In this document: positions 16,031-64,000 of the stretch, one piece after another | Position numbering within the stretch: the stretch's first letter is position 1 | How the letters are laid out: each line of letters opens with the position of its first letter | Source of the DNA: a virus | Strand: one strand, 5' to 3' | IMG/VR virus record: IMGVR_UViG_3300025133_000030 | Span: 1-64,000 of that record | DNA length: 64,000 nt | The notes under the pieces: model-generated | Database searches by the model: none | The model's input: only the letters and a program-made list of their open reading frames with translations | What the model was told of the DNA's origin: nothing | Translations under genes and position numbers: made by a program

Positions 16031-17152
16031 ATGCCAAAGGTAAGTAGAATCAAAACGGGCAAAATCTCTATGGAAGAGATGCGCAGACTGATAAACAAGA
16101 AGGCAGGCCATGAGGTTGCGCATAGTTTGGCAAAAGATAATCCAACAGAGGTCAAGGAGTGGATTCCAACCGGCTCGCGCTGGTTGGATTCCATAATCTG
16201 TAAGGGAAGCCAAGCAGGCATTCCGGTAGGTAAAATCTCCGAAATAGCTGGACTCGAAGCAACTGGCAAGTCATACATGGCAACTCAGATTGCCGCAAAC
16301 GCTCAGAAGATGGGAATCGATGTCGTATACTTCGACTCGGAGTCAGCCATTGACCCGGGCTTTTTGCAAAGAGCAGGATGCAATTTGGATACTATGATGT
16401 ACGTCCAAGCAGAGAGTGTAGAGTTTGTACTTGAGACTATCGAAGAATTATTAGCCACAGATAATAAGTGGCTGTTCATTTGGGATTCTCTAGCTCTAAC
16501 TCCTGCAATCTCTGATATCGAGGGCGACTTTAATCCACAATCATCGATGGCAGTCAAGGCAAGAATCCTCGCAAAGGGCATGTCCAAGTTGACTGTTCCG
16601 ATTGCCAACAAGCAGGCTACCTTCTTAGTGCTTAATCAACTTAAGACTAATATCACCCGCTCTCCATCCGAGGCTATGACAACACCTTATGTCACCCCCG
16701 GCGGAAAGGCGATGCATTATGCCTATTCCTTGAGGGTGTGGCTTACCGGCCGCAAGGCGAAGGCTAGCTTCGTGGTTGATGAGAACGGTTTCCGAGTTGG
16801 TTCTGAGGTTAAAGCAAAATTAGAAAAATCTAGATTTGGTACTGCGGGTCGACATTGTAATTTTAAGATCTTGTGGGGCGACTCTGAGAATATTGGGGTT
16901 CAAGACGAGGAGAGTTGGTTCGACGCAATTCAAATATCTGACAGTATTAAGAATTCAGGAGCATGGTTCTCTCTAACTCTAGGGGATGGAACAGAAAAGA
17001 AATTTCAGCGTAAAAACTGGCTAACAATGTTGCAGGACGAGCAATTTAGAGGCAGAGTATTGCAGATCATCGATGAAGATGTTATAATGAAATTTGATAA
17101 CAGGACAGGCAAAGCTACAGATTACTATGATGAAGAAGAGAAGAATGAGTAA
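16031..17152 (+). CDS. recA: RecA/UvsX recombinase
   Basis: IPTGSRWLD, Walker A GLEATGKS, YFDSE, FIWDS, LNQL and TPGGKAMHYAYSLR. Confidence 0.93.
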   Translation: MPKVSRIKTGKISMEEMRRLINKKAGHEVAHSLAKDNPTEVKEWIPTGSRWLDSIICKGSQAGIPVGKISEIAGLEATGKSYMATQIAANAQKMGIDVVYFDSESAIDPGFLQRAGCNLDTMMYVQAESVEFVLETIEELLATDNKWLFIWDSLALTPAISDIEGDFNPQSSMAVKARILAKGMSKLTVPIANKQATFLVLNQLKTNITRSPSEAMTTPYVTPGGKAMHYAYSLRVWLTGRKAKASFVVDENGFRVGSEVKAKLEKSRFGTAGRHCNFKILWGDSENIGVQDEESWFDAIQISDSIKNSGAWFSLTLGDGTEKKFQRKNWLTMLQDEQFRGRVLQIIDEDVIMKFDNRTGKATDYYDEEEKNE

Positions 17153-26595: not shown

Positions 26596-26815
26596 TGATT
26601 TGTCGTACACGATAAAAGAAGAAGCTGGATTTCCAATGAACTACATGCAGTTGAGCAGGGTTCAACAGGAATTTGTAGAAAGTTTGACAGAAGCACTCTC
26701 AACAGAGAGTGTTAATCCAGACTTGGCCGAAGTTAGGGAATCTTTACAGGACTTAAACGAGGATCTGCTCACAATCAATGAAGAGCTTGTTAGGTTGATG
26801 AATGAACTCCGCTAA
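26573..26815 (+). CDS. Hypothetical coiled-coil protein
   Basis: 80 aa ORF overlapping both neighbours in operon fashion. Confidence 0.55.
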   Translation: MKTAKLYNDLSYTIKEEAGFPMNYMQLSRVQQEFVESLTEALSTESVNPDLAEVRESLQDLNEDLLTINEELVRLMNELR

Positions 26816-29800
26816 AGAAGCACAGAAATCTCCAGAGATTCCTTTTGTTGGGTTGCATGCCCACTCAGTTGCAGGTAGTATATTTGATGCACTGGGCTAC
26901 CCCAGTGAGCATATGGATTTTGCATATCAAAACGGCATGAATGCACTCGCACTCACAGATCACGGAAATGCCAACGGCCTCGCACATCAGGTACTGCACG
27001 CCCAAAAGATGCGCGCAGATGGTAAAGAGTTCAAGCCTATTTTTGGAGTGGAGGCTTACTTCATTCCATCTATTTCCAACTGGAGAAGCGAGTACGACAA
27101 AATCAGACAGGAGACCAAGAACAAGTCTCAGCTCGTGGGTACGCAGTCCGGTGCAACGGTTGAAGACGAAGAATCCTCGAAGAAGAGGATCAAAAGCATC
27201 TTAAATCGCCGTCGCCATCTTATTCTTTTGGCTCAAAACCCCACAGGATTAAAGAATATATTTAAGCTGATCTCTGATAGTTATCGAGCAGAGAATTATT
27301 ACCGATTTCCGAGGGTTGATTATGCAGCTTTAAAGCGTCATAGTGAGGGTGTAATAGCTGCCTCTGCTTGTTTGGGTGGCGTATATGCAGGCTGCCTTTG
27401 GGAAAACAGAGAAGAAGGCCCAGACGCAGTTCTAGAGTCTTTTAGAAAGGTAACACAGAAGATGCAATCCATCTTTGGAGACAGGTGGCACGGCGAATTG
27501 CAGTGGAATAATGTCCCAGAGCAGCATGAGTTAAACAACTATATTATTCAGATGCACCACGAGTTTGGAGTTCCTCTGATTTCCACGGCTGATAGTCACT
27601 ACTATAATCCAGAGGCTTGGAAGGACAGAGAGTTGTACAAGCGACTTGGCTGGCTGGGAAAGCGCCCAGAATGGATGAGCGACGAGTTGCCAGTCGACGT
27701 TGAAGAGATTGGCTACGAATTGTATCCCAAAAATGGCGATCAAATGTGGGAGTCTTACAAGAAATATTCAAAGGAGTGCGGAGTTGAGTATGACGACAAT
27801 CTAGTTATGGACTCTATCACCAGAACCCACGACATTGCGTATAACAAAATTGAGGAGTTCTCTCCAGATAACGAGGTTCGGCTACCCGGTTTCATAGTGC
27901 CTCCCGGTGCAACAGCTGTGCAGACCTTGGCTAAGCTTTGCTTGGAGGGAACTAGACAACTTGGTCTGTCTGGAAACAAAGAATACGCAGATAGGTTAAA
28001 GCATGAGGTGTCAGTCATTGAGTCTCGCGGCTTTAGTAAATACTTTTTGACAATGAAGGCTATATCAGACCGCGCTGCAGCCAAGCAGTTAACTGGAGCT
28101 GGCCGCGGCTCTGCAGCGGGCTCTTTGGTGGCCTACGTTTTGGGTATAACACAAGTAGATCCTATAAAGTATGGACTTCAGTTCGAAAGATTCCTGACAA
28201 AGGGTGGCTCAGGATATCCAGACATTGACTACGATGTTGCCGACCCAATGACCCTGAAAGAATCATTGATTGAAGAGTGGGGTGACAACACGGTGGTTCC
28301 AATTACTAACTGGAACACTTTACAGTTGCGATCTCTGATAAAGGATATTTCAAAATTCTATGGCATACCGTTCACAGAAGTAAACGAAGTCACAGGAAAA
28401 ATGATATATGAGGCCACACCACTGGCCAAACAAGAACATGGCATAACGTCGGGCGTCTATAACCCCACATTCGAAGAGTTAATGAAATATTCAGAAACAC
28501 TAAAAATTTTCCTCAGAAAATATCCAGATATTAAGACCCATGTGGAAACTTTGTATGGCCAAGTTAGGTCTGCGAGTAGGCACGCCGGCGGCGTTGTTAT
28601 AGGGGAGAATCTAGATGAGTGGATGCCGCTAATTAATAGCGGTGGTGTGCGCCAGACGCCATGGTCTGAAGGTCAGAACGTCAGACACCTAGAACCAATG
28701 GGTTTTATCAAATTTGATATTTTGGGTCTGGCTTCTTTAAGGATGTTGGAGGGAGCTATTCGACATATCCTCAAAAGGCATCACAACATTAATGATCCTA
28801 CCTTTGATGATGTAAAAAAATACTATGAAGAAAACCTGCACCCTGAAGTGATGGATCTGGAGGACGAGGCTGTGTGGAAGAATGTCTTTCACAAAGGTAA
28901 GTGGGCAGGTATTTTCCAGTTTACAGAAGCTGGAGCACAACAGTTCTGCAAGAGAGCTAAACCTAATAACATTATTGAGTTGGCGGCTATCACAAGCATT
29001 TACCGACCGGGCCCTCTTGGGGCTGGAGTTGACAAGCAGTTTGTTGCGGCCAAGCGAAGGCCTCGCGATGTAGATTATTTAAATGATGTAGTGAAAGAAG
29101 TAACAGAAGAGACCTTTGGTTTTTTGATTTTCCAAGAGCAGATTGCTATGTTGGCACACAAGTTGGGCAAAGATCTTTCTCTTGATGAGGGTAATAAGTT
29201 AAGAAAGCTACTAACTAAGAAAGGTACAGGCGCGGTCCAAGAAGCAAAGGATAAGATCTTTTCAAAGTTTCTTGCTGGTTGCCTTGAAAAGGGAGTTAAG
29301 AAATATGAAGCCAAGGAATTATGGGAGAAGTTCGAGTATTTTTCTGGCTACGGCTTTAATAAGTCTCACGCTGTATCATATTGTATGTTATCTTATCAAT
29401 GCGCTTGGTTGATGCATTATTACACCCCAGAGTGGGTAGCGGCTTTTTTGGATAAGGAGCCGGATACAAGAAAAGAACGAGCAATTAATGTAGCTAAGAG
29501 CAATGGCTTCGGAATTGAGGCTTTGGATTTGAACACCTCTGGAGTCGTCTGGGAAATTTCCGAAGATGGGAAAACTCTAATACAACCCTTAACGTCAGTG
29601 AAAGGCTTAGGGGATAAGGCCATAGAGCAGATTATAGATAATAGACCCTTTCAGACCGCGGAGGAGTTTCTCTTTAACGAGAATATTATATATAGCAAGT
29701 TAAACAAAAAGGCCATCGACGTTCTGGTGCGCAGCCAGACCATGAATTGTCTAATGGATGAGAGATTCTCAGGACTTAAGCATTTTTGGTCTGCAGTTGC

Positions 29801-30245
29801 AGTCGATAGACCTAGGAAAGAAAAGAACTTACTTGAAAACATCGAGAAGTATCAAGATGAGGGAGACTTCTTAGAAGAGGAAAAGATTCAGTACTTGGTA
29901 GATTTAACTGGCGTCTTTCCATTAAATTTGGTTATGAATGAACACATCAGAAGACGCTTGGACGAGTTGCGAGTCCCGCCTATCAGCGAATTTGATACTG
30001 ACTTGCAGCTTGCTTGGTTTGTGCCAAGGGAGATAATCAAAAAGAAAACCAAGAACAACAAAGATTACTACATTGTTAAGGTTATAGATAGCAACAGTGA
30101 GGTAAATTCTATTAAATGTTGGGGAGTTCGACCCGGTCAAGATAGAATACATATCAATAGGCCGTATATGGCAAGATTAGACTATGACCCCCAGTGGGGT
30201 TTTAGTACTAGACGATTACGATCAGACTTTAGACTATTAGGATAG
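26802..30245 (+). CDS. dnaE: DNA polymerase III alpha subunit (family C)
   Basis: PHP domain (LHAHS, TDHGN, GVEAY, SACLGG, ADSHY), GRGSAAGSLVAY, PDIDYD, RHAGGV, KFDILGL, IFQF, YRPGPL and YGFNKSH. Confidence 0.97.
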   Translation: MNSAKEAQKSPEIPFVGLHAHSVAGSIFDALGYPSEHMDFAYQNGMNALALTDHGNANGLAHQVLHAQKMRADGKEFKPIFGVEAYFIPSISNWRSEYDKIRQETKNKSQLVGTQSGATVEDEESSKKRIKSILNRRRHLILLAQNPTGLKNIFKLISDSYRAENYYRFPRVDYAALKRHSEGVIAASACLGGVYAGCLWENREEGPDAVLESFRKVTQKMQSIFGDRWHGELQWNNVPEQHELNNYIIQMHHEFGVPLISTADSHYYNPEAWKDRELYKRLGWLGKRPEWMSDELPVDVEEIGYELYPKNGDQMWESYKKYSKECGVEYDDNLVMDSITRTHDIAYNKIEEFSPDNEVRLPGFIVPPGATAVQTLAKLCLEGTRQLGLSGNKEYADRLKHEVSVIESRGFSKYFLTMKAISDRAAAKQLTGAGRGSAAGSLVAYVLGITQVDPIKYGLQFERFLTKGGSGYPDIDYDVADPMTLKESLIEEWGDNTVVPITNWNTLQLRSLIKDISKFYGIPFTEVNEVTGKMIYEATPLAKQEHGITSGVYNPTFEELMKYSETLKIFLRKYPDIKTHVETLYGQVRSASRHAGGVVIGENLDEWMPLINSGGVRQTPWSEGQNVRHLEPMGFIKFDILGLASLRMLEGAIRHILKRHHNINDPTFDDVKKYYEENLHPEVMDLEDEAVWKNVFHKGKWAGIFQFTEAGAQQFCKRAKPNNIIELAAITSIYRPGPLGAGVDKQFVAAKRRPRDVDYLNDVVKEVTEETFGFLIFQEQIAMLAHKLGKDLSLDEGNKLRKLLTKKGTGAVQEAKDKIFSKFLAGCLEKGVKKYEAKELWEKFEYFSGYGFNKSHAVSYCMLSYQCAWLMHYYTPEWVAAFLDKEPDTRKERAINVAKSNGFGIEALDLNTSGVVWEISEDGKTLIQPLTSVKGLGDKAIEQIIDNRPFQTAEEFLFNENIIYSKLNKKAIDVLVRSQTMNCLMDERFSGLKHFWSAVAVDRPRKEKNLLENIEKYQDEGDFLEEEKIQYLVDLTGVFPLNLVMNEHIRRRLDELRVPPISEFDTDLQLAWFVPREIIKKKTKNNKDYYIVKVIDSNSEVNSIKCWGVRPGQDRIHINRPYMARLDYDPQWGFSTRRLRSDFRLLG

Positions 30246-36750: not shown

Positions 36751-38322
36751 ATGACTAAGGAACTTAACTCTGGCGCAGACCTGCGTCAATTAATTGTCGA
36801 TGGCGTCAATATTTTGGCGGACAATGTCGCTACAACTCTCGGCCCAAAGGGTCGTAATGTCATTATTCAAACCACTAATGGCAACCCAATCATTACCAAG
36901 GACGGAGTAACTGTTGCTCAGTTTTTGGACTTGGAAAACCCGTTCAAGAACGCGGCGGTGCAAGTAGTAAAGCAAGCTTCGGCACAGACAAATTCTGATG
37001 CAGGCGATGGCACTACAACTTCTACAGTTTTGTCTCGTGCACTGCTCTTAGAGGCCCAAGAACACCTCTCTAACGGAGCCTGCCCTGTAGATCTGAAGCG
37101 AGGCATGGATTTGGTTACATCTGCTGTTGTGGAGGATTTAAAGTCTAATTCTCGCCCGGTCATGAGCGAAGAAGATGTACGCCATATTGCAACAATTTCT
37201 GCAAATGGAGACGAAACCATAGGGACTTTAGTTTCGACAGCCGCAGACCGCGTCGGAAAGAACGGCTCAATTACAATTGAGGAGGCTAGATCTAATGACA
37301 CTACACTGGATTTAGTTGAGGGTTTTCGTCTAGACTCCGGGTATGCTGCTAACGCATTTATTACCGACGAGAGAAGAGGTGTGGTCAAATATGAGGATCC
37401 TATGTTCTTGATTACTGATAGTAAGATTGAAACAGTTGATCAGATTCTACCATCTCTTGAGATCGCAGCAAGAGAATCCAGACCGTTTATCATAGTTGCA
37501 GACGAAATCGAAGGCCAAGCCTTGGCTGCGCTAATTATGAACGCAGTACGGGGCACTATGAAAGTTGCAGCAGTCAAGTCTCCTCGTTATGGAGAGGAGA
37601 GGCGCGGTATCATGAGTGACCTAGCGTTGGCAACCGGGGCATCTTATATTACAAAAGAATCAGACCTAGACCTAAAGACAGTCAAAATGTCAGATTTTGG
37701 ATCTGCAAAATCAATTGAGATTGGCAAGAGAATGACAACAATTGTCGATGGTTCCTCGAACTCTGATCAACTTGACGAAAGAATTCAAACAATCAAAGCC
37801 CAGATCGAGCAAACTGAATCAATCCATGAGTGTGAGAGAATGCAGGAGCGAATCACTCGGTTAGCTTCAGGCGTCGCGGTGATCCGCGTCGGTGCCCCAA
37901 CCGAGATTGAAATGATCGAGAAGAAACACAGGATCGAAGACGCCCTAGAGGCAGTGAGGTCCGCTCAGATGGAGGGTATTGTCCCCGGAGGTGGTCTAGC
38001 TCTTTATAGAACAAGAGACCAGCTAAAAGTCTCAACTAAGAATGAGGATCAAGATAGGGGCGTCGAGATTGTCTTAAATTCTTTGAGCGCACCCATCGAA
38101 CAGATGGCAAAGAACGCTGGATTTGATGTGGCATCGACCTTGAGCCAAATCGATACAAGTGCAGATGATTTTGGGTTAGATTTTTCCACAGGAGATATTG
38201 TAAATATGCATGAAGCAGGCATCATAGATCCGGTGAAGGTAACCCGTTGCGCACTTCAGAATGCGGTGTCCGTAGTCGGAACTCTGATTACAACTGATTA
38301 TGCCATTATTCAAACGGAATGA
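36751..38322 (+). CDS. groL: Chaperonin GroEL
   Basis: TLGPKGRNV, ITKDGVTVA, AGDGTTT, ATISANGD, GIVPGGG and GIIDP.KV. Confidence 0.97.
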   Translation: MTKELNSGADLRQLIVDGVNILADNVATTLGPKGRNVIIQTTNGNPIITKDGVTVAQFLDLENPFKNAAVQVVKQASAQTNSDAGDGTTTSTVLSRALLLEAQEHLSNGACPVDLKRGMDLVTSAVVEDLKSNSRPVMSEEDVRHIATISANGDETIGTLVSTAADRVGKNGSITIEEARSNDTTLDLVEGFRLDSGYAANAFITDERRGVVKYEDPMFLITDSKIETVDQILPSLEIAARESRPFIIVADEIEGQALAALIMNAVRGTMKVAAVKSPRYGEERRGIMSDLALATGASYITKESDLDLKTVKMSDFGSAKSIEIGKRMTTIVDGSSNSDQLDERIQTIKAQIEQTESIHECERMQERITRLASGVAVIRVGAPTEIEMIEKKHRIEDALEAVRSAQMEGIVPGGGLALYRTRDQLKVSTKNEDQDRGVEIVLNSLSAPIEQMAKNAGFDVASTLSQIDTSADDFGLDFSTGDIVNMHEAGIIDPVKVTRCALQNAVSVVGTLITTDYAIIQTE

Positions 38323-43949: not shown

Positions 43950-44267
43950 TTGCCTCTGATCGAATCGAGGAGCAAAAGAAACAAGTTGAAAGGGTACCGA
44001 CAGGAAGAGGAAATTAAGATAGGCGACCTAGTGAACCACGTTCTTTACGATAAATCGTGGATTGGTTTGGTGTTGGACATAGATATGGAACTAGACGCTT
44101 TAAAGAAAGAAGGCAGGGCGTTGGTGAAGATGGTCCCCGGAACTTGCTATGAATTTCACTTTGGCTTAAAGTGGCTTAAGAAGAGAGCAGGCCAGACAAA
44201 GGGGTGGATTTCTCTGAGGTGGGTCAGGAAAGTGAAATATCCATCAAATGTTGAAAAAAAAACTTGA
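43950..44267 (+). CDS. SH3/KOW-like small protein (IKIGDLV)
   Basis: xxGDLV...GLV...W pattern shared with the array genes. Confidence 0.55.
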   Translation: MPLIESRSKRNKLKGYRQEEEIKIGDLVNHVLYDKSWIGLVLDIDMELDALKKEGRALVKMVPGTCYEFHFGLKWLKKRAGQTKGWISLRWVRKVKYPSNVEKKT

Positions 44268-44292
44268 CACTTGATCAAAAATATGCCATTAT
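44264..44292 (+). promoter_or_regulatory. Sigma70-type promoter TTGACA-17-CATTAT upstream of tRNA-Arg
   Basis: A-tract upstream, extended -10 TG, and the tRNA starts 12 nt later. Confidence 0.6.
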
Positions 44293-44303
44293 ATAAAAAC
44301 TAA

Positions 44304-51504: not shown

Positions 51505-51801
51505 ATGACTCAGGGTTTCAATGTTGGAGATCTAGTCGAAATAAGGATGCTTGGCTCGAACTATTATGGCGCGAAGGGTCTGGTGGTGAGCAGAATACAC
51601 TACCAACATGGACACAGCGACGACTGGATTGTATACCAGTCGTCTTCATTGGTAGTTTCTGGTGGGTCTAGACCAGCACCAGATGAGTATAGTTGTAAGG
51701 TTAAGTTGGTTTCGCGAGACGAGACGCAAAATGAATTTGTTATGATAAGAGCCAAGTGGCTCAGGATAATATCGAAAGTAGAAAAAAGAAATGATAAGTA
51801 A
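51505..51801 (+). CDS. KOW/SH3-like protein (FNVGDLVEI)
   Basis: GFNVGDLVEIR..G.NYYGAKGLVV, a KOW motif. Confidence 0.65.
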   Translation: MTQGFNVGDLVEIRMLGSNYYGAKGLVVSRIHYQHGHSDDWIVYQSSSLVVSGGSRPAPDEYSCKVKLVSRDETQNEFVMIRAKWLRIISKVEKRNDK

Positions 51802-56308: not shown

Positions 56309-56497
56309 ATGTATAACATCGGAGATCTAGTAGTTACGAATTCATGTAGCGAACTAGGAGTCGTGACCGCCCACGTTGAAGGCTTGAAAAGGTATGTAGT
56401 ATACTGGTTCATAAGCAAGAACTATAACTCTGTGAACGAAAAGCACCTAAAATTTTACAAAGCTGAGTATAATTACTCATGTGTTAAACATAGGTGA
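56309..56497 (+). CDS. SH3/KOW-like mini-protein (MYNIGDLV)
   Basis: AGGAG RBS; GDLV...GVV...YVVYW...HLK. Confidence 0.65.
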   Translation: MYNIGDLVVTNSCSELGVVTAHVEGLKRYVVYWFISKNYNSVNEKHLKFYKAEYNYSCVKHR

Positions 56498-56684
56498 CCT
56501 AGTAGCGTGTTATGTACTTAATTCGTCCCTTGAGGATGAAGCAATGCTTCAGTACGGCCTAGTACTGGAGCGCAATGAGCATCTTGAAGATGTTTTAGTG
56601 TTGGATAATTACGGGGAGATAAGATGGTGGCCAAACAAGAGGTGGAGACTTCTAAAGAAGAAGCCGAATCACCGCTGGTTCTAG
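56481..56684 (+). CDS. SH3/KOW-like mini-protein (MLNIGDLV)
   Basis: The upstream gene's TGA stop lies in this gene's GGT-GAC codons, as in the arrays. Confidence 0.65.
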   Translation: MLNIGDLVACYVLNSSLEDEAMLQYGLVLERNEHLEDVLVLDNYGEIRWWPNKRWRLLKKKPNHRWF

Positions 56685-57469: not shown

Positions 57470-57756
57470 CAATTACCACATCGAGTTCATTTGCACTGGC
57501 GAACATCGGTGGTAAGAGATATGTTGTTCCGCAATGGATAGAAGTACCGCTAGGTACGACTCTTGCAGACGTGAAGGTGGTTCGTCCAGATCCACCAGTT
57601 AATGCTGTGACCATTGTAAAAGAAGAGTATATAACAGGGTCGAAGGGTGATGAATACCTAGTGAAGGTTCTTAGTGACGGCTCTGGTACGTGCGAATGTT
57701 GGGGATACCGACGACGAAAAGACTGCAAGCATCTAAAAGCCTTGCGAAATACATAA
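57463..57756 (+). CDS. SWIM zinc-finger protein
   Basis: GSKGDEYLV...TCECWGYRRRKDCKH. Confidence 0.8.
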   Translation: MVTITTSSSFALANIGGKRYVVPQWIEVPLGTTLADVKVVRPDPPVNAVTIVKEEYITGSKGDEYLVKVLSDGSGTCECWGYRRRKDCKHLKALRNT

Positions 57757-57770
57757 ATAAAGGAAAAGAA

Positions 57771-59081
57771 ATGTTAAAGAATATCATTATTGTCTTGATA
57801 ACAACAGTTACGTATGCTATGGCAGAAGCGCCATTTGAATGCGACGATAACTTTGGTGAGTGCGGCACACCGGAGATGTCTGGCGGAGGAAACGCCGGCG
57901 GTGGGTCTATGCTCATCAATAATTCAGATTTAGGCGATACATATCAACGCGCCGACGATTATGACGACGACGGAGTTGAAGATCCGCATGACAACTGTCC
58001 GCGTCTGCGAAATCTTGATCAGTTTGATACAGACGGTGACGGAGTAGGAGATGCTTGCGATAATTGTATGCACTTGGCGAATGATGATCAATTTGATTCA
58101 GATTCAGACGACTTCGGAGATGCCTGTGATGTGGACATTGACGGCGACGGAAACAACAACGACGTAGACAGTTGCCCTCTTGTTCCAAATGGCTCTGATC
58201 CTGATTTAGACTCGGATGGGATCGGTGATGCCTGCGATGAAGACATCGACGGCGACGGCATTAACAACCTCGACGATAATTGCCCTATGATTCCCGGCGA
58301 AATCGTAGAGGCTCCGGATGATTCGACGGAGTGTTTTCCTGATGTCGACCGCGACGGATCACCGGACCCAACGGTGGATAACTGCATTGGAATTTACAAC
58401 CCTTTACAGTACGACGCTGACGCCGACGGACTGGGCACTCCATGCGATCCAGACGATGATGCAGACATGGTACCGGATAACATCGACAATTGCACAGGTG
58501 TATTTAATCCTCACCAGAGAGACCTCGACCGCGATGGTTTAGGAGACGACGGCTGTGATGATATATATTGCTTTGTGGTGTACGGCGATAAAGCAAACTG
58601 TCTAGACCCGGCAGCTCCGCTTCAGGCTTATTCGCCCTCGCTGATCGCATCAGTAGGTGAGCCTGTCCCTCTTCGTCTGTTCATGAATAGGACAAATCAG
58701 TCAACCAGATATCAGTGGACCTTGGTTTCTCGACCGCGCACTTCCGCTGCTGTAATAAGAAGCGGATCTGGTCACGTTAACACATCAGATCCTTATGAAT
58801 ATCAATACGACAACTCTCGTCCGATGATCACCCCTGACGTTAGTGGGGAGTATGTTATTAGGGTTGATGTCGTCACTGTCTTCGAGGACTCGGTCTCTCG
58901 CGAAATTCAAACCCGCGCTACTTTCACTAGCCGAGTGGAGGTTGCAGGATATCACATTCCGAAATTGCGTCACCAATCCGGATGTAATGTTAACGTCGCG
59001 ACCACTGACCACCCATGGGTTTTCTATTGTTTTATTTTGGTGGCTCTATTCAGAAAAAGATTGACACGAACAGGGAAATAG
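57771..59081 (+). CDS. Secreted thrombospondin type-3 repeat protein with a MYXO-CTERM-like tail
   Basis: Signal peptide, many DNCP / DxDxDGxGDAC repeats, a PKD/Ig-like domain and C-terminal SGC...hydrophobic helix...RKR. Confidence 0.8.
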   Translation: MLKNIIIVLITTVTYAMAEAPFECDDNFGECGTPEMSGGGNAGGGSMLINNSDLGDTYQRADDYDDDGVEDPHDNCPRLRNLDQFDTDGDGVGDACDNCMHLANDDQFDSDSDDFGDACDVDIDGDGNNNDVDSCPLVPNGSDPDLDSDGIGDACDEDIDGDGINNLDDNCPMIPGEIVEAPDDSTECFPDVDRDGSPDPTVDNCIGIYNPLQYDADADGLGTPCDPDDDADMVPDNIDNCTGVFNPHQRDLDRDGLGDDGCDDIYCFVVYGDKANCLDPAAPLQAYSPSLIASVGEPVPLRLFMNRTNQSTRYQWTLVSRPRTSAAVIRSGSGHVNTSDPYEYQYDNSRPMITPDVSGEYVIRVDVVTVFEDSVSREIQTRATFTSRVEVAGYHIPKLRHQSGCNVNVATTDHPWVFYCFILVALFRKRLTRTGK

Positions 59082-59089
59082 TGTAATAT
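59061..59089 (+). promoter_or_regulatory. Sigma70-type promoter TTGACA-17-TAATAT heading cassette array 1
   Basis: Followed by TAAGAACA, which also follows the array-2 promoter. Confidence 0.65.
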
Positions 59090-59131
59090 GTAAGAACAGT
59101 GGGAGCTTTTTGAAAGAACAGATGAAAATTG

Positions 59132-59347
59132 GTGATTAAAGTAGGAGATCTGGTTAGGTATACCAACCTTGCCTACCCGGATGAAGGTATCGGCCTCGTT
59201 TTGGAATACGAGAAGATCCCCAACAAACTTGAGTTTGAGTTTAAGGTCCGCTGGACAGATCATTCCAGTTCAAACCGAGACTGGTACAGGGAAGGTGAAC
59301 TGGAGTTGATCGTTGAACGTCGGAGATTTAGTAAGCTATCTGGATAG
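59132..59347 (+). CDS. Array mini-protein A1 (MIKVGDLVRY...ELELIVERRRFSKLSG)
   Basis: The junction stop is changed from TGA to AGA, giving a short read-through tail. Confidence 0.75.
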   Translation: MIKVGDLVRYTNLAYPDEGIGLVLEYEKIPNKLEFEFKVRWTDHSSSNRDWYREGELELIVERRRFSKLSG

Positions 59348-59498
59348 GTATTGCGGTATTGTGGTGGCTATCGATGAGCCCAACCCACACCACGCCTCCG
59401 CCGCCACAGGAGTTGTTGTCATTTGGGTAGATACCGGCTTCAGATCGTGGGAGTTCACGAATCAGTTGGAGGTAGTTAGTGAATATAAAAAAGGGTGA
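59313..59498 (+). CDS. Array mini-protein A2 (MNVGDLVSYLDRY...LEVVSEYKKG)
   Basis: ORF track; paralog of 63413-63589. Confidence 0.8.
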   Translation: MNVGDLVSYLDRYCGIVVAIDEPNPHHASAATGVVVIWVDTGFRSWEFTNQLEVVSEYKKG

Positions 59499-59670
59499 TC
59501 TAGTCACCAACAAGCTCCACATAGGCCTGCCGAAAACGCATGGCATCGTGACAAGAACTCCTGAGGAAACAAACAATGGAGACTACGAAGTATGGTATAC
59601 TACAGGCGTATATACAAGAAAAATATTTTGTGCACCGAGACAATTGGTGTTAATAAGTGAAAGTCGGTGA
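59479..59670 (+). CDS. Array mini-protein A3 (MNIKKGDLV...LISESR)
   Basis: GGAGGT RBS in the junction. Confidence 0.8.
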   Translation: MNIKKGDLVTNKLHIGLPKTHGIVTRTPEETNNGDYEVWYTTGVYTRKIFCAPRQLVLISESR

Positions 59671-59836
59671 TCTGATTGAGTGGAATCTTCATACGCTACG
59701 CCCACGCGGTATCATAATCGGCCTTAATGGGGATTTCGCGGAGCTTTTTTGGTTTCAAAACACGCGACTTTCCCTATCTGGTAAAATTTCATATGTTGGA
59801 AAACGAGAATTGAAGGTAATCAGTGAAAGTCGGTGA
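59657..59836 (+). CDS. Array mini-protein A4, 59 aa, not in the ORF track
   Basis: MKVGDLIEWNLHTLRPRGIIIGLNGDFAELFWFQNTRLSLSGKISYVGKRELKVISESR. Confidence 0.8.
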   Translation: MKVGDLIEWNLHTLRPRGIIIGLNGDFAELFWFQNTRLSLSGKISYVGKRELKVISESR

Positions 59837-60020
59837 CTTGATAGTGTATCGTAATGTTATGTACCCTTCCCGGCAACACTTAGAGCGTCCCGCAATCGTG
59901 GTCAAGCAGCGGGTCTCTCACATAAAGGGCAAGAAAAACTTCCGCATTTACTATCCATGCCACAATGAATGGTTAAATTGTTGGGAAGATGAATTTGAGG
60001 TCGTCAGTGAAAGTCGGTGA
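59823..60020 (+). CDS. Array mini-protein A5 (MKVGDLIVY...FEVVSESR)
   Basis: ORF track; 14-nt overlaps at both ends. Confidence 0.8.
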   Translation: MKVGDLIVYRNVMYPSRQHLERPAIVVKQRVSHIKGKKNFRIYYPCHNEWLNCWEDEFEVVSESR

Positions 60021-60231
60021 TTTGGTGAAGTACACTCCGTTTCCGCACGAAGAGCTTCATAAATCTGGAATGACAGGTCTGGTTACATCTGAGCCTTATG
60101 TTGACAGAGGCATTGGGGACATGCATTTAATTGACATCATGTGGACAAGGGATCGAGGTACGGGATATCCCGCAGGATGCATATGTCAGGAATACGTGGA
60201 TGAGCTGGAGGTAGTAAATGAGTCTAAATAG
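60007..60231 (+). CDS. Array mini-protein A6 (MKVGDLVKY...LEVVNESK)
   Basis: GTG start in the junction, after GAGGT. Confidence 0.8.
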   Translation: MKVGDLVKYTPFPHEELHKSGMTGLVTSEPYVDRGIGDMHLIDIMWTRDRGTGYPAGCICQEYVDELEVVNESK

Positions 60232-60394
60232 AGGTGATCGAGTAGTGATCACAAATAAGAACAACATCGAAGCGGAAGTCATTGGCTTTTATACTCATTC
60301 ACAGGATGCAAGAGTAAGAACAATTGCTGGCCATGAGTGGATTATTAGTCCCATTTTTCTTGAAAAAGTTGTTGACAGCAGCAAGAAAAAGTGA
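60218..60394 (+). CDS. Array mini-protein A7, 58 aa, not in the ORF track
   Basis: MSLNRGDRVVITNKNNIEAEVIGFYTHSQDARVRTIAGHEWIISPIFLEKVVDSSKKK; GGAGGT RBS. Confidence 0.75.
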   Translation: MSLNRGDRVVITNKNNIEAEVIGFYTHSQDARVRTIAGHEWIISPIFLEKVVDSSKKK

Positions 60395-60400
60395 TAATAT
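60372..60400 (+). promoter_or_regulatory. Sigma70-type promoter TTGACA-17-TAATAT
   Basis: Upstream of the 60430 ORF. Confidence 0.6.
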
Positions 60401-60429
60401 ATAAATATACAGAATGAGGAAAACTCAGA

Positions 60430-61191
60430 ATGGATATTGGCAGACACTTTGACACAAAAGCTACTTGGAAAGGTTACCAGAATGTTAAGGGTAAGAAAAC
60501 TCGCGTCCAATACTTGGGCAACGTAGCCAAGGTTGGCAATGATATTGTTGATAATAGAGATGGCAACTTGTTCAGAGACTACAGTGTTCAATTCGGCGGT
60601 CACTTCAATGACAAGTCTGGTTCAAGACTAATAACTATTGAAGAGGCGGTAGAGGCAGTTTGTTTTGGCATTGAGCTACGCTCAGATAGATACGGAAAGG
60701 AAAGATATCAGTATCTTCGCAATGATTTATTGGTAGCAGGAAAGAAGCTAAGCTCGAAAGATTTTGAGATTATCTCAGCTTATAATATTAAGCCAGCTTT
60801 TAAACGTGACTTTCTTGGGAACCTGCGTTATCTTAAGGAAGAAATGTTAGCCGCTGGTGCTTACGGGTTCAATGCTTGCGTCATGGACTACAATATGGCA
60901 ACGGCAAGATTGATTCTCAAAGAGGGTGACATCGATGATGCGGTTGTTTGGCGTCTTGGAGATGATCCCACCCGCCGCCGTTCAAGCTTGAGACAATACC
61001 TTATGAGCATTGCGGTGACTAACAAGGGCAAGATCAGCTTAGAACAATTCAAAGTTCTTGAGAATTGGGGATTGGTTGTAGCTGATGGTGTTCACACAAC
61101 CAAATACAAAGATGGAGAAAAACATCTCATAACTTATAATATGTCGAGGTTTTCAGGCAACGCACACGAGTGGGCAAAAGAGAGAACGTAA
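60430..61191 (+). CDS. Hypothetical protein (253 aa)
   Basis: GAGGA RBS; no motif recognised. Confidence 0.7.
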   Translation: MDIGRHFDTKATWKGYQNVKGKKTRVQYLGNVAKVGNDIVDNRDGNLFRDYSVQFGGHFNDKSGSRLITIEEAVEAVCFGIELRSDRYGKERYQYLRNDLLVAGKKLSSKDFEIISAYNIKPAFKRDFLGNLRYLKEEMLAAGAYGFNACVMDYNMATARLILKEGDIDDAVVWRLGDDPTRRRSSLRQYLMSIAVTNKGKISLEQFKVLENWGLVVADGVHTTKYKDGEKHLITYNMSRFSGNAHEWAKERT

Positions 61192-61246
61192 CTCTTTCAG
61201 TTATAGAAAGTAGTCTGGCACATGCCGGGACTGAAAGGAGTTAAAA

Positions 61247-61354
61247 ATGGTTCACATCGAAGTTTATTGCATGAGCAATGGCAATGGTGGTTGGCCTTCC
61301 ACAACTGGTAACCCCAGTGGTGGCGGACGTGACAACAATCCACCAAATAAATAA
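61247..61354 (+). CDS. 35-aa Gly/Asn/Pro-rich peptide, not in the ORF track
   Basis: MVHIEVYCMSNGNGGWPSTTGNPSGGGRDNNPPNK with a strong AAGGAG RBS 6 nt upstream. Confidence 0.6.
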   Translation: MVHIEVYCMSNGNGGWPSTTGNPSGGGRDNNPPNK

Positions 61355-61362
61355 AAAACTAT

Positions 61363-61491
61363 AGGCATGTGCAATGCCTTCCCGTGCACAGGGAGAATCA
61401 AGGGGCTACGTAGCTTTGGAAGCACTGGTGAGTTTACCCCGTCACTTCGGTGACGGGCAGGGGTTCTCACTGAAACAAAAAAAACCCCTTG
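61363..61491 (+). ncRNA. Candidate multi-hairpin structured RNA immediately 5' of tRNA-Lys
   Basis: Hairpins AGGCAT/ATGCCT, TCCC/GGGA and CCCGTCAC-TTCG-GTGACGGG; long-range pairs CAAGGGG/CCCCTTG and GTGAG/CTCAC. Confidence 0.5.
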
Positions 61492-61494
61492 TAT

Positions 61495-61567
61495 GGAGCA
61501 TTGGCGCAATTGGTAGCGCATCGGACTTTTAATCCGCTGGTTCCGAGTTCGAGTCTCGGATGCTCCA
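61495..61567 (+). tRNA. tRNA-Lys(TTT)
   Basis: Acceptor GGAGCAT/ATGCTCC, anticodon loop CTTTTAA and T arm CCGAG-TTCGAGT-CTCGG. Confidence 0.93.
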
Positions 61568-61577
61568 CTAAGATTGG

Positions 61578-61922
61578 ATGGGAGATATGGGATACAGATC
61601 AGAAGTAGCTATAGCCTTGACGGATCATGCAGTGAGGTTGCTTAACGCAATCATGGAACATGAGCCTGAAGTTCGTAAACTTGTTGGTGATGGCCAACAA
61701 ACTATCAACACGAGCGAAGAAGACAGAGGTGGTAAACTCTACTGGGATTATATCAAATGGTACGATGATTTCCAAGAGATCTCAATGGTCGAACGACTAT
61801 TGGAGCACATCCCAGATGAAGACTTCCACTTTATCAGAATTGGTGAGGATTCGACTGATATCGAGGAGCGTGGTGGCTTCTACGCCAGCGACATGCATGT
61901 GCAGAGGTCAATATCGTGGTAG
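61578..61922 (+). CDS. Phage hypothetical protein (MGYRS...KWY...FIRIGED pattern)
   Basis: 114 aa ORF with a motif pattern I associate with phage hypothetical proteins. Confidence 0.7.
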   Translation: MGDMGYRSEVAIALTDHAVRLLNAIMEHEPEVRKLVGDGQQTINTSEEDRGGKLYWDYIKWYDDFQEISMVERLLEHIPDEDFHFIRIGEDSTDIEERGGFYASDMHVQRSISW

Positions 61923-62191
61923 CAATAACATTGGGTGCTCTTGTCAAGTCCGGTAAAGATGGCGCACTGGGCACAGTCACAAAGGTGACTAGGTTGGAGA
62001 TTCCAGACGAAGGTGGCCAAGAGCTTATGCCCCATCAGGATGCATACCGAATCCGCACCGGTGATGTAGTCTCTGTCAGGTGGCAGAGCGACCCGACTAA
62101 GCAGACCACACACGTATTCTACGATGGTCAGGCCGAATCCTTCGTTGATATGTCAGACACTCACATGAACATCACGATTGTAGAACGGTGA
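61916..62191 (+). CDS. SH3-like small protein (ITLGALV)
   Basis: GALV...GTVTKV...SVRW. Confidence 0.6.
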   Translation: MVAITLGALVKSGKDGALGTVTKVTRLEIPDEGGQELMPHQDAYRIRTGDVVSVRWQSDPTKQTTHVFYDGQAESFVDMSDTHMNITIVER

Positions 62192-62358
62192 AGCCCGGTG
62201 ATTTAGTGAGGTATAAGCCTAGCTTATTTAGCTCAAACCCAACTAAAATCTATATAGTGCGAAGAGTCGAGCCATCCAACGATTGGACTTTTGTTCACGG
62301 TTCCTCGCCTGTACCGATCCAAATGAGCCTTTTAGAAGTGGTTAGTGAGAAACCCTAA
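62188..62358 (+). CDS. Array-type mini-protein, 56 aa, not in the ORF track
   Basis: MKPGDLVRYKPSLFSSNPTKIYIVRRVEPSNDWTFVHGSSPVPIQMSLLEVVSEKP. Confidence 0.75.
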   Translation: MKPGDLVRYKPSLFSSNPTKIYIVRRVEPSNDWTFVHGSSPVPIQMSLLEVVSEKP

Positions 62359-62594
62359 TGTGGTCAAATAACAGTACAAACTATCAAGACCCGCCTATAC
62401 CTAAAATTGGAGAAGCAGTCCACCACATTGGATATAACCCTGAATTTTATTATGGTCTTGGCCTTGTTCAATCAGTAACTAGGAGAGACGCATTCGGACG
62501 CCCGTCTCGCGTCAAGGTTTTGTGGTCAAAATGTAAAACCAACGGTGACATTGACATCCGACAACTTAGACTTGCACATTCAGAAAATACTTGA
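62358..62594 (+). CDS. SH3-like small protein (PKIGEAV)
   Basis: GLGLV...VKVLW...QLRL; TAATG overlap. Confidence 0.6.
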   Translation: MWSNNSTNYQDPPIPKIGEAVHHIGYNPEFYYGLGLVQSVTRRDAFGRPSRVKVLWSKCKTNGDIDIRQLRLAHSENT

Positions 62595-62619
62595 CTTTTG
62601 TTAAGTTATTTGATATTAT
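62591..62619 (+). promoter_or_regulatory. Sigma70-type promoter TTGACT-17-TATTAT heading cassette array 2
   Basis: Extended -10 TG; followed by TAAGAACA. Confidence 0.65.
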
Positions 62620-62643
62620 ATAAGAACAATAAAGGTAAAGAGT

Positions 62644-62862
62644 TTGCAAGTGGAATTGAAAGCTGGAGATATGGTGTACTTCGAGCCACACCTTGCACTT
62701 GGCGTCTTGATAGAGAAAAGAGGCGACGACTGGGTTTACTCTCTGAGGTCTCCTCCGCGCAACGATGTTGAGCATTTTATGATTAAGACTGACCAGCATG
62801 CTGAAACAGCGTTCATCGCGGATATAGAAAGTGGAAGACTCAAATACTATGCGAGTCGGTGA
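62644..62862 (+). CDS. Array mini-protein B1 (..LKAGDMVYF...YYASR)
   Basis: First gene after the promoter; its stop lies in the next gene's GGT-GAT codons. Confidence 0.7.
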   Translation: MQVELKAGDMVYFEPHLALGVLIEKRGDDWVYSLRSPPRNDVEHFMIKTDQHAETAFIADIESGRLKYYASR

Positions 62863-63061
62863 TCTGATTGAGTGCAACAACGACCATCGAGCAATAATCA
62901 TGGGCATGCAGATGCTTTATCCGGGCCACCCTCAGTCTCCGGTGCGGAATTATGAGGTATTGTGGCTTAATGAAGCGCCAAAGCACTCGCGAAAGTTTGG
63001 ACAATTTTACATTCTTAGTGCTTTTGCAGTAAAGAGAGTTATTAGTCGTGCAAGTCGGTGA
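62849..63061 (+). CDS. Array mini-protein B2 (MRVGDLIEC...VISRASR)
   Basis: ATG start in a junction variant. Confidence 0.8.
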   Translation: MRVGDLIECNNDHRAIIMGMQMLYPGHPQSPVRNYEVLWLNEAPKHSRKFGQFYILSAFAVKRVISRASR

Positions 63062-63260
63062 TTTAGTGAGGAAGCGTTTCGGGCGCATCGACCCATACCA
63101 ACAGAGTACAGCAGGCGTCATCGTCGGCAAGGAAGTCGAAACTCGGGGTTCAAACCCCATGCTCTGTGGTCAATGGCTTGTCGTTTATTATCCCGGCTCT
63201 GGCCATCGAGCCTATAGATACAGGCCATCGGAATTTGAGGTAATCAGTGAAAGTCGGTGA
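63048..63260 (+). CDS. Array mini-protein B3 (MQVGDLVRK...FEVISESR)
   Basis: ORF track. Confidence 0.8.
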   Translation: MQVGDLVRKRFGRIDPYQQSTAGVIVGKEVETRGSNPMLCGQWLVVYYPGSGHRAYRYRPSEFEVISESR

Positions 63261-63426
63261 TTTGGTTCAGTGGTACACTGAGTACGCAGACACCACCGTG
63301 GTAGATGTTGGTTTCGTCACGCTCAGCGCGATTAATCATGTCTTTATCGTGTGGCAAACTGGTGATGGAAACGGCTGGTTCTGCCCGGGCCATCCAAGCA
63401 TAGGAGTTATCAGTGAAAGTCGGTGA
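63247..63426 (+). CDS. Array mini-protein B4, 59 aa, not in the ORF track
   Basis: MKVGDLVQWYTEYADTTVVDVGFVTLSAINHVFIVWQTGDGNGWFCPGHPSIGVISESR. Confidence 0.8.
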   Translation: MKVGDLVQWYTEYADTTVVDVGFVTLSAINHVFIVWQTGDGNGWFCPGHPSIGVISESR

Positions 63427-63589
63427 CTTGGTGTGTTATCTGGATAGGTACTACGGTATCGTCACAGAGTGTGGCATGTACTTTGAATACGGTGATAACG
63501 TCGCAGGTGTCGAAGTTGTCTGGATGGATTCTGGATTCAAATCGTGGGAGTTTGGGAGCTTGCTGGAGGTCATCAGTGAAAATCGGTGA
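63413..63589 (+). CDS. Array mini-protein B5, 58 aa, not in the ORF track
   Basis: MKVGDLVCYLDRYYGIVTECGMYFEYGDNVAGVEVVWMDSGFKSWEFGSLLEVISENR. Confidence 0.8.
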   Translation: MKVGDLVCYLDRYYGIVTECGMYFEYGDNVAGVEVVWMDSGFKSWEFGSLLEVISENR

Positions 63590-63797
63590 CTTAATTAAGT
63601 ATCGAGGACTGGAAGAGGATGGACATTACCCATACAAAGCAATTGGCCTCTGTCTAAGGAAGCAGACCGATCCACACTACCCTGATCACGGCATGAGAAT
63701 GTTAGTTATGTGGTTTGATGACATGGAATCCACCCACGAAGACCTCGATGTTTGTGAAAAAGACGACTGGATGGAAGTAATCAGTGAAAGTCGGTGA
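63576..63797 (+). CDS. Array mini-protein B6 (MKIGDLIKY...MEVISESR)
   Basis: The true start is the junction GTG after GGAGGT; the track's 63423 start is an artefactual extension. Confidence 0.8.
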   Translation: MKIGDLIKYRGLEEDGHYPYKAIGLCLRKQTDPHYPDHGMRMLVMWFDDMESTHEDLDVCEKDDWMEVISESR

Positions 63798-63984
63798 TTT
63801 GGTGAGGTTTAGATTCTCTTCTGATGAAGCGGGAAATCCGTCTTTGGTGGGTTTAATTGTAGATGTAGATACATTTCTTTATTTGGACAAAGCATATGTC
63901 AAGTGGAATCCGACACAGTTGGGTACGAACAAACTTCTGTGGGAAAACGTCGAAGAATTGGAGGTTATCAGTGAAAGTCGGTGA
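63784..63984 (+). CDS. Array mini-protein B7 (MKVGDLVRF...LEVISESR)
   Basis: ORF track. Confidence 0.8.
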   Translation: MKVGDLVRFRFSSDEAGNPSLVGLIVDVDTFLYLDKAYVKWNPTQLGTNKLLWENVEELEVISESR

Positions 63985-64000
63985 TTTGGTTGAAACATAC
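63971..64000 (+). CDS. Array mini-protein B8, truncated by the window end (MKVGDLVETY...)
   Basis: Perfect junction at 63961-63990. Confidence 0.7.
   Translation, partial: MKVGDLVETY

Follow-up and report, generated by a model that had tools for sequence, protein, structure and literature searches.

The stretch analyzed here, called the window below, comprises 64,000 nucleotides and is the first part of the 153,803-bp IMG/VR record IMGVR_UViG_3300025133_000030, an uncultured marine myovirus genome estimated to be 85% complete. Toward its end lie two arrays, A and B, of small plus-strand genes, or cassettes, that overlap one another at a repeated sequence element, the junction. The genome holds 24 genes of this family, each of 49 to 74 amino acids (aa): 7 in array A, 16 in array B, and 1 standing alone. 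Array A (59129-60394; family hidden Markov model [HMM] E values of 6e-10 to 3e-18) consists of A1 (59129-59347), A2 (59313-59498), A3 (59479-59670), A4 (59657-59836), A5 (59823-60020), A6 (60007-60231), and the terminal A7 (60218-60394), and its consecutive genes overlap by 35, 20, 14, 14, 14, and 14 nt. The solitary gene, M1 (62188-62358, plus strand; family HMM E of 2e-11), encodes 56 aa of the form VKPGDLV...LLEVVSEKP and is joined to the preceding 91-aa gene via a 4-nt GTGA overlap. Array B, of which 62644-64000 lies in the window, opens with a divergent head, B1 (62644-62862), followed by B2 (62849-63061), B3 (63048-63260), B4 (63247-63426), B5 (63413-63589), B6 (63576-63797), B7 (63784-63984), and B8, which begins at 63971; B8 to B16 reach past the window to genome base 65574. 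An initial annotation of this DNA had described two arrays of small open reading frames (ORFs) joined by a repeated 14-mer, and its ORFs, site positions, and start-to-start spacings of 1 mod 3 were reproduced. It had placed the start of array A at 59132; the most likely start is the TTG at 59129, and the rest of array A is as claimed. The "at least 8" ORFs that it had counted in array B become 16 when the array is followed beyond the window. In one of these, B11 (genome 64487-64687; L008 1694-1894), GCG replaces the GTG/ATG start in an otherwise perfect junction; B11 may start at an upstream ATG at 64442, giving an 81-aa form with a 59-nt overlap with B10, or may have lost translation.

Both arrays are headed by a sigma70-like promoter module on the plus strand: TTGACA-17-TAATAT followed by GTAA, with 10/12 consensus matches, at 59061-59093 for array A, and TTGACT-17-TATTAT with TG upstream at 62591-62623 for array B. 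The corresponding sites in a consensus scan are 59061-59089 and 62591-62619. The extended module, TTGAC-N18-TAWTATRTAA, has only four copies in the 154-kb record (44264-44296, 59061-59093, 60372-60404, and 62591-62623), three of which are in the cassette region; the copy at 44264-44296 sits just upstream of a tRNA-Arg gene (44304). The host-type promoters proposed earlier for the array heads would correspond to these sigma70-like sites, which we infer to act as array promoters. Early expression of the arrays is presumed as well.

Exact copies of the 14-mer GTGAAAGTCGGTGA lie at 59657, 59823, 60007, 63247, 63413, 63784, and 63971. Among the sites previously listed as variants, those at 63048 and 63576 differ by one mismatch, and those at 59313, 62188, and 62849 are looser, with more than two mismatches. 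In the window, there are nine matches within two mismatches versus 0.32 expected by chance; genome-wide, there are 14 within one mismatch, all on the plus strand. The 14-mer is part of a junction element of about 35 nt that is present at each internal gene boundary. The element codes for the final strand and the tail of one protein (LEVISESR*) as well as for strand one of the next (MKVGDLV), and it also supplies a GGAGG Shine-Dalgarno sequence and the downstream start codon. Across 801 unique genes, the sequence logo shows conservation from -12 to +23. At the B3/B4 junction (63235-63269, plus strand), for example, a GAGGT Shine-Dalgarno sequence lies inside ..EFEVISESR*, the start is GTG, and the upstream TGA falls within GGT-GAT of B4. 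An exact 14-nt overlap occurs at 17 of the 21 internal junctions in the genome, and this is why the start-to-start spacings are all 1 mod 3. The stop codon of the upstream gene sits within the Gly4-Asp5 codons of the downstream gene. Where the downstream GGTGA is mutated (A2, B13, and B15), the upstream gene extends to a later stop, which indicates that the downstream codons supply the upstream stop. The ESR* tail is a by-product of the overlap, since A7, B16, and M1, which are terminal, lack it. The logo, the codon analysis, and the overlaps at the individual junctions all bear out the proposal that the junction is dual coding and carries the Shine-Dalgarno sequence, start, and stop.

Codon choice in the junction follows from this arrangement. 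Within the overlap, each base is nonsynonymous in one frame or the other. The Gly4 codon is GGT in 88% of genes versus 29% in interiors, because its T begins the upstream TGA, and if Val3 is GTC or GTA, the other frame reads CGG or AGG (Arg). In the stretch preceding the overlap, the Glu at -8 is GAG in 57% and GAA in 3% of cases, a preference that preserves GGAGG as the Shine-Dalgarno sequence. Synonymous bias beyond these constraints is modest: Leu6 is TTR in 64% of genes versus 37% in interiors. Folding of six junctions compared with shuffled sequences gave z scores of -1.1 to +0.2, with no conserved hairpin or stem-loop. Variants of the junction show modest clustering by genome (Leu6 codon; p = 4e-5 in a rough chi-square test with low counts), which hints at within-genome homogenization without proving it.

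All members match one family HMM with E values of 1e-9 to 1e-18 and share the scaffold KVGDLV..G[IL]V..V.W..LEVIS. Their interiors, which had been called mostly unrelated, are therefore divergent paralogs. Ten members had no Pfam match at E up to 1, the family had no PHROG match and no PDB sequence match, and the ESM Atlas returned nothing beyond unnamed viral clusters and a single SH3-C_UBE2O lead. The AlphaFold2 model of B7 has five strands, with a predicted local distance difference test (pLDDT) score of 87.6. Foldseek aligned it with the Spt5/NusG KOW domain, PetP, PsaE, YorP, and PWWP at template modeling (TM) scores of 0.6 to 0.7, with E values of only ~0.03; across KOW, PetP, YorP, and small viral barrels, TM scores were 0.6 to 0.74. 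The model also resembles many small proteins of uncultured viruses. We are confident that B7, as modeled, has an SH3/KOW-like barrel fold, in agreement with what the initial annotation had read from the sequence pattern. The median ratio of nonsynonymous to synonymous substitution (dN/dS) over 42 orthologous cassette interiors is 0.16, showing that these are real genes under purifying selection. The family profile finds 2884 clusters at 50% identity, nearly all of 50 to 80 aa and none of them named.

Two metagenomic proteins, P0052 and P0133 (127 and 100 aa), are genuine in-frame fusions, each joining two family domains, in which the junction stop has been lost, as in ...LEVVKQVKVGDLV..., and this shows that the junction can generate two-domain proteins too. 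Two other long matches that had the appearance of fusions, P0002 and P0030, are generic multi-SH3 proteins outside the family.

An exact 18-mer of the junction occurs in more than 115 IMG/VR stretches, which together with the present genome hold 942 members. Proteins encoded by the present record include a tail sheath, DnaB helicase, ribonucleotide reductase, a DnaE-type polymerase, and GroEL, and there are six tRNAs. The polymerase shares no more than 29% identity with those of GenBank phages, and there is no close cultured phage. Against GenBank phages, tblastn with B7 gave no matches, and a DNA search matched the tRNA-Lys only. A DnaE ortholog with 63 to 77% amino acid identity was found in 8 of 10 array-bearing records tested, the other 2 being fragments. 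A gp23-type capsid gene was present in 2 of 5 relatives tested for it and was not found in the present record, which is 85% complete. Related phage genomes of 185 to 204 kb carry 13 to 24 family members each. On this sequence evidence, the array-bearing phages form one clade of uncultured marine myoviruses. The genes for the DnaE-type (Pol III alpha) polymerase and the GroEL-type chaperonin lie at 26802-30245 and 36751-38322. Classical T4-type phages have a family-B polymerase, and the combination of a DnaE ortholog with a gp23-type capsid in the relatives differs from theirs. A scan of contigs from genome collections returned 111 stretches, nearly all of them single matches in unrelated taxa, with ~70 expected by chance. 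Arrays were found on only six of those contigs (L130, L153, L172, L173, L221, and L231), four of which had been binned to metagenome-assembled genomes (MAGs) of Deltaproteobacteria, Flavobacteriales, Legionellales, and Acidiferrobacteraceae. These are most likely misbinned phage contigs and give no host assignment.

Comparison of the relatives had been named as the check on which the idea of movable cassettes could fail, and it gave the opposite of a fixed order: the order varies, and the breakpoints are at the junctions. Cassettes of L035 correspond to L058 positions 1, 7, 6, 13, 9, and 4, and L032 and L076 are scrambled in a similar way. One cassette is 97% identical in nucleotide sequence between loci, its flanks are at random identity, and the homology both begins and ends in the junction. 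We then considered 105 close pairs of cassettes that are equal in length and come from different loci, applying a flank homology threshold of 60 nt. Twenty-nine pairs, representing 21 cassette types and 73 to 100% identical, were without a homologous flank on either side, and 16 further pairs were without one on one side. On the upstream side, homology broke off no more than 27 nt before the start codon in 42 of 44 cases; on the downstream side, it reached no more than 18 nt past the stop in 37 of 40. In the same pairs of phages, backbone genes have 71 to 77% nucleotide identity, compared to up to 97 to 100% for the cassettes. Since the cassettes are more alike than the backbones, they must have moved between diverged phages.

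The cleanest event separates two near-identical genomes. L018 and L020, from two samples, are 99.5 to 100% identical across 11 kb, apart from one 176-bp cassette, which is bounded by the 20-nt direct repeat ATGAAAGTCGGTGATTTGGT; the shorter form keeps both adjoining ORFs intact. Within a genome, paralogs are nearly all less than 70% identical, whereas orthologs between genomes often reach 80 to 100%. The highest within-genome identity in the present phage is 53%, and among 116 sources only one within-genome pair reached at least 80%. Recent within-genome duplicates are thus nearly absent, and turnover consists of the exchange of distinct types, not of accordion-like amplification. As read from these alignments, related phages have gained, lost, reordered, swapped, and transferred single whole cassettes at junctions. 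The whole-gene deletion, insertion, and reordering foreseen from the single sequence are indeed seen in the relatives, with breakpoints inside the junction.

Between the two arrays of the present phage lies a module without family members (60372-62191, plus strand). It begins with the promoter-module copy at 60372-60404 and continues with a 253-aa gene (60430-61191), a tRNA-Lys gene (61495-61568), a 114-aa gene (61578-61922), and the 91-aa gene that precedes M1 (61916-62191). The genes of this module had no Pfam match, and no relatives of the 253-aa gene were found in viral contigs. L035 has a single continuous array of 18 genes without such a module inside, and judging from the two layouts, the module looks like an insertion into an array, or else L035 has suffered a deletion. 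Directly upstream of array A, 57690-59081 encodes a protein of 463 aa that has a hydrophobic stretch at its N terminus and calcium-binding repeats of thrombospondin type-3 (PF02412, 96 bits), which is unusual for a phage. Farther upstream, weak matches to the family profile (E of ~1e-3 to 1e-4) at 56484-56678 and 51520-51642 may be very divergent or decayed members.

The reading we favor, with a probability of roughly 70%, is that the arrays are a lineage-specific library of SH3-like barrels in which the junction is a linker for homologous recombination carried out by general machinery. The family genes would form promoter-headed, translationally coupled chains, and the junction would serve as the linker because no other sequence is shared by all cassettes. 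As the stop and start codons, the Shine-Dalgarno sequence, and the first strand are all contained in the junction, a crossover anywhere within it would regenerate two intact, coupled genes. Frames and coupling would survive exchange, so that whole genes could be deleted, inserted, replaced, reordered, or transferred between coinfecting phages. The enzyme would most likely be a general one, either the phage RecA-like protein or host enzymes. A RecA/UvsX-like recombinase gene is found at 16031-17152 (plus strand; PF00154, 120 bits), and its product is a candidate for this role. Recombination in T4-type phages requires merely short patches of homology (PMC2839356). The initial annotation had seen no dedicated recombinase in the window, and none was found across the 154-kb record either: a tyrosine recombinase (PF00589) is absent from this 85% complete sequence, in a search whose controls matched, and no serine recombinase and no RecT were found. 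There was also no reverse transcriptase (RVT_1) match in the record. A diversity-generating retroelement was considered and rejected, given the lack of RVT_1 and the fact that members differ by indels and along their full length, not at adenine-specific sites.

Several points weigh against this reading. The present phage itself shows no rearrangement: L124 (100% identical) and L125 (99.96%) are the same phage and are collinear. All the evidence from relatives derives from short-read metagenome assemblies, the fold is supported by the model of a single member, B7, and the enzyme that makes the crossovers is one we infer. The initial annotation had also asked whether the DNA of the junction is conserved beyond coding need. 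Most of the conservation is accounted for by the dual-coding requirement together with the Shine-Dalgarno sequence, leaving a weak extra synonymous bias outside the overlap, and nothing in the sequence demands that the junction evolved for recombination. A bolder version, in which the junction is an evolved exchange device under selection because it allows a clade of ocean phages to trade ready-to-express, small SH3-like binders out of thousands of types (maybe for host takeover or antidefense), possibly via excised circles, is put forward as a tentative suggestion, with the odds against it.

Because all the relatives are short-read assemblies and the junction repeat is shared within and between co-occurring phages, chimeric joins at the junction could in principle mimic shuffling. 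We regard such an assembly artifact as very unlikely. The exact shared stretch is only ~20 to 30 nt, probably below typical reads and larger assembly k-mers; a single-cassette swap would require two chimeric joins leading back to the same backbone; the events recur across many independent samples; and in all arrays the reading frames are intact and subject to purifying selection. An ordinary tandem multigene family, shaped by duplication and divergence only, with the junction kept by protein and translation constraints, would agree with a junction codon bias that is mostly explained by those constraints and with the lack of rearrangement in the present phage and its two near-identical contigs. 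We find this equally improbable, as such a family would not be expected to show a lone within-genome pair at or above 80% identity among 116 sources, cassettes that are more similar than backbone genes while sitting in unrelated contexts, or near-identical genomes separated by a junction-bounded indel.

An indel between short direct repeats is a classic signature of replication slippage, and the clean 176-bp indel with its flanking 20-nt direct repeat also fits slippage or template switching (copy-choice) between junction repeats in place of strand exchange. Slippage in one genome, however, cannot yield near-identical cassettes in phages whose backbones are ~28% diverged, nor can it yield scrambled order between genomes. 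These two findings call for intermolecular exchange, for which template switching between co-replicating genomes is possible. As the replacement for strand exchange, we consider copying of this kind unlikely. Slightly less likely still is a dedicated, integron-like site-specific system with the junction as the recognition site of a specialized recombinase. The cassette boundaries are highly precise and the arrays have putative promoters at their heads, as integrons do, and a record that is 85% complete, with many genes of no known family, leaves some room for it. The integron likeness drawn in the initial annotation fails at this point, since the 154 kb yielded neither a tyrosine nor a serine recombinase and the junction does not fold like attC, with no significant hairpin as RNA or DNA (z of -1.1 to +0.2). 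In addition, the apparent end-points of homology spread over ~45 nt and do not fall at one fixed position, and the shuffling of promoter-early stem-loop (PeSL) cassettes in T4-type phages works without a dedicated enzyme (PMC2839356).

If linker recombination at the junction is correct, the arrays are an unusually clean natural case of the linker model of modular phage evolution. Each gene boundary in an array is the same dual-coding element, which allows exchange events to be read base by base, and the units exchanged are single genes of ~170 to 200 bp, of which there are thousands of variants, all of one fold, to draw on. Should the proteins prove to be host-directed binders, abundant ocean phages would possess a rapidly re-assortable arsenal, and the arrays would also form a natural scaffold library. 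Were the junction an exchange device, it would be a recombinase-free, coding-sequence analogue of the integron. The arrays in addition illustrate how recombination can be rendered "safe" by overlapping reading frames. To our knowledge, this design principle has not been described for PeSLs or integrons.

Large DNA viruses have tandem multigene families, such as the multigene families (MGFs) of African swine fever virus (ASFV) and the "gene accordions" of poxviruses. Like these, the arrays are sets of paralogs in variable regions whose copy number is altered by recombination. The ASFV and poxvirus families, however, grow by recent, near-identical duplication, whereas the array copies within a genome are old and distinct and are exchanged between genomes. 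At the level of the protein, the family shares the five-stranded barrel and the N-terminal xVGDxV strand with the KOW domain of Spt5/NusG, PetP, PsaE, PWWP/Tudor, and YorP (2HEQ) of the Bacillus subtilis SPbeta prophage, but it has no sequence-level membership among such small SH3-like barrels (Pfam, PDB). As in an integron (attC/IntI), promoterless cassettes, here behind a putative promoter at the head of the array, are gained, lost, and reordered as units; unlike an integron, the record has no IntI-type tyrosine recombinase and no attC-like folded site, and the cassettes overlap each other and form one protein family.

The initial annotation had named no described counterpart of the architecture, but an analogue exists. 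The closest described system is the PeSL-mediated modular shuffling of T4-type phages (Arbiol et al. 2010, PMC2839356; Comeau et al. 2014, PMC4122927), and the arrays are best read as its coding-sequence analogue. In both, a short conserved motif, here the ~35-nt junction, is repeated between small genes of a plastic region (nonessential genes in the case of PeSLs), single-gene indels and replacements between related phages have their end-points in the motif, and no dedicated recombinase is known. T4-type features of the present phages are the RecA/UvsX-like gene and, in relatives, gp23-type capsid genes. PeSL-type shuffling includes circular excision products, or mini-circles (PMC2839356). 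The two systems differ in the motif itself, which in PeSLs is an intergenic sigma70-like promoter plus stem-loop terminator and here is a coding stop/start overlap with a Shine-Dalgarno sequence and no stem-loop. PeSL genes are transcriptionally insulated and the cassettes are unrelated ORFans, whereas array genes would be translationally coupled in one transcription unit and belong to one protein family. PeSL shuffling in turn exemplifies the Botstein linker model (PMC3029335). In the model of Botstein and Campbell, as in the arrays, short conserved sequences at gene boundaries are sites of homologous exchange that keep modules placed and expressed (PMC2839356, PMC3029335). That model was made for the functional modules of lambdoid phages, at whose mosaic joints linkers are seldom identifiable (PMC3029335); in the arrays, by contrast, the linker is explicit, stands at every boundary, and lies inside coding sequence.

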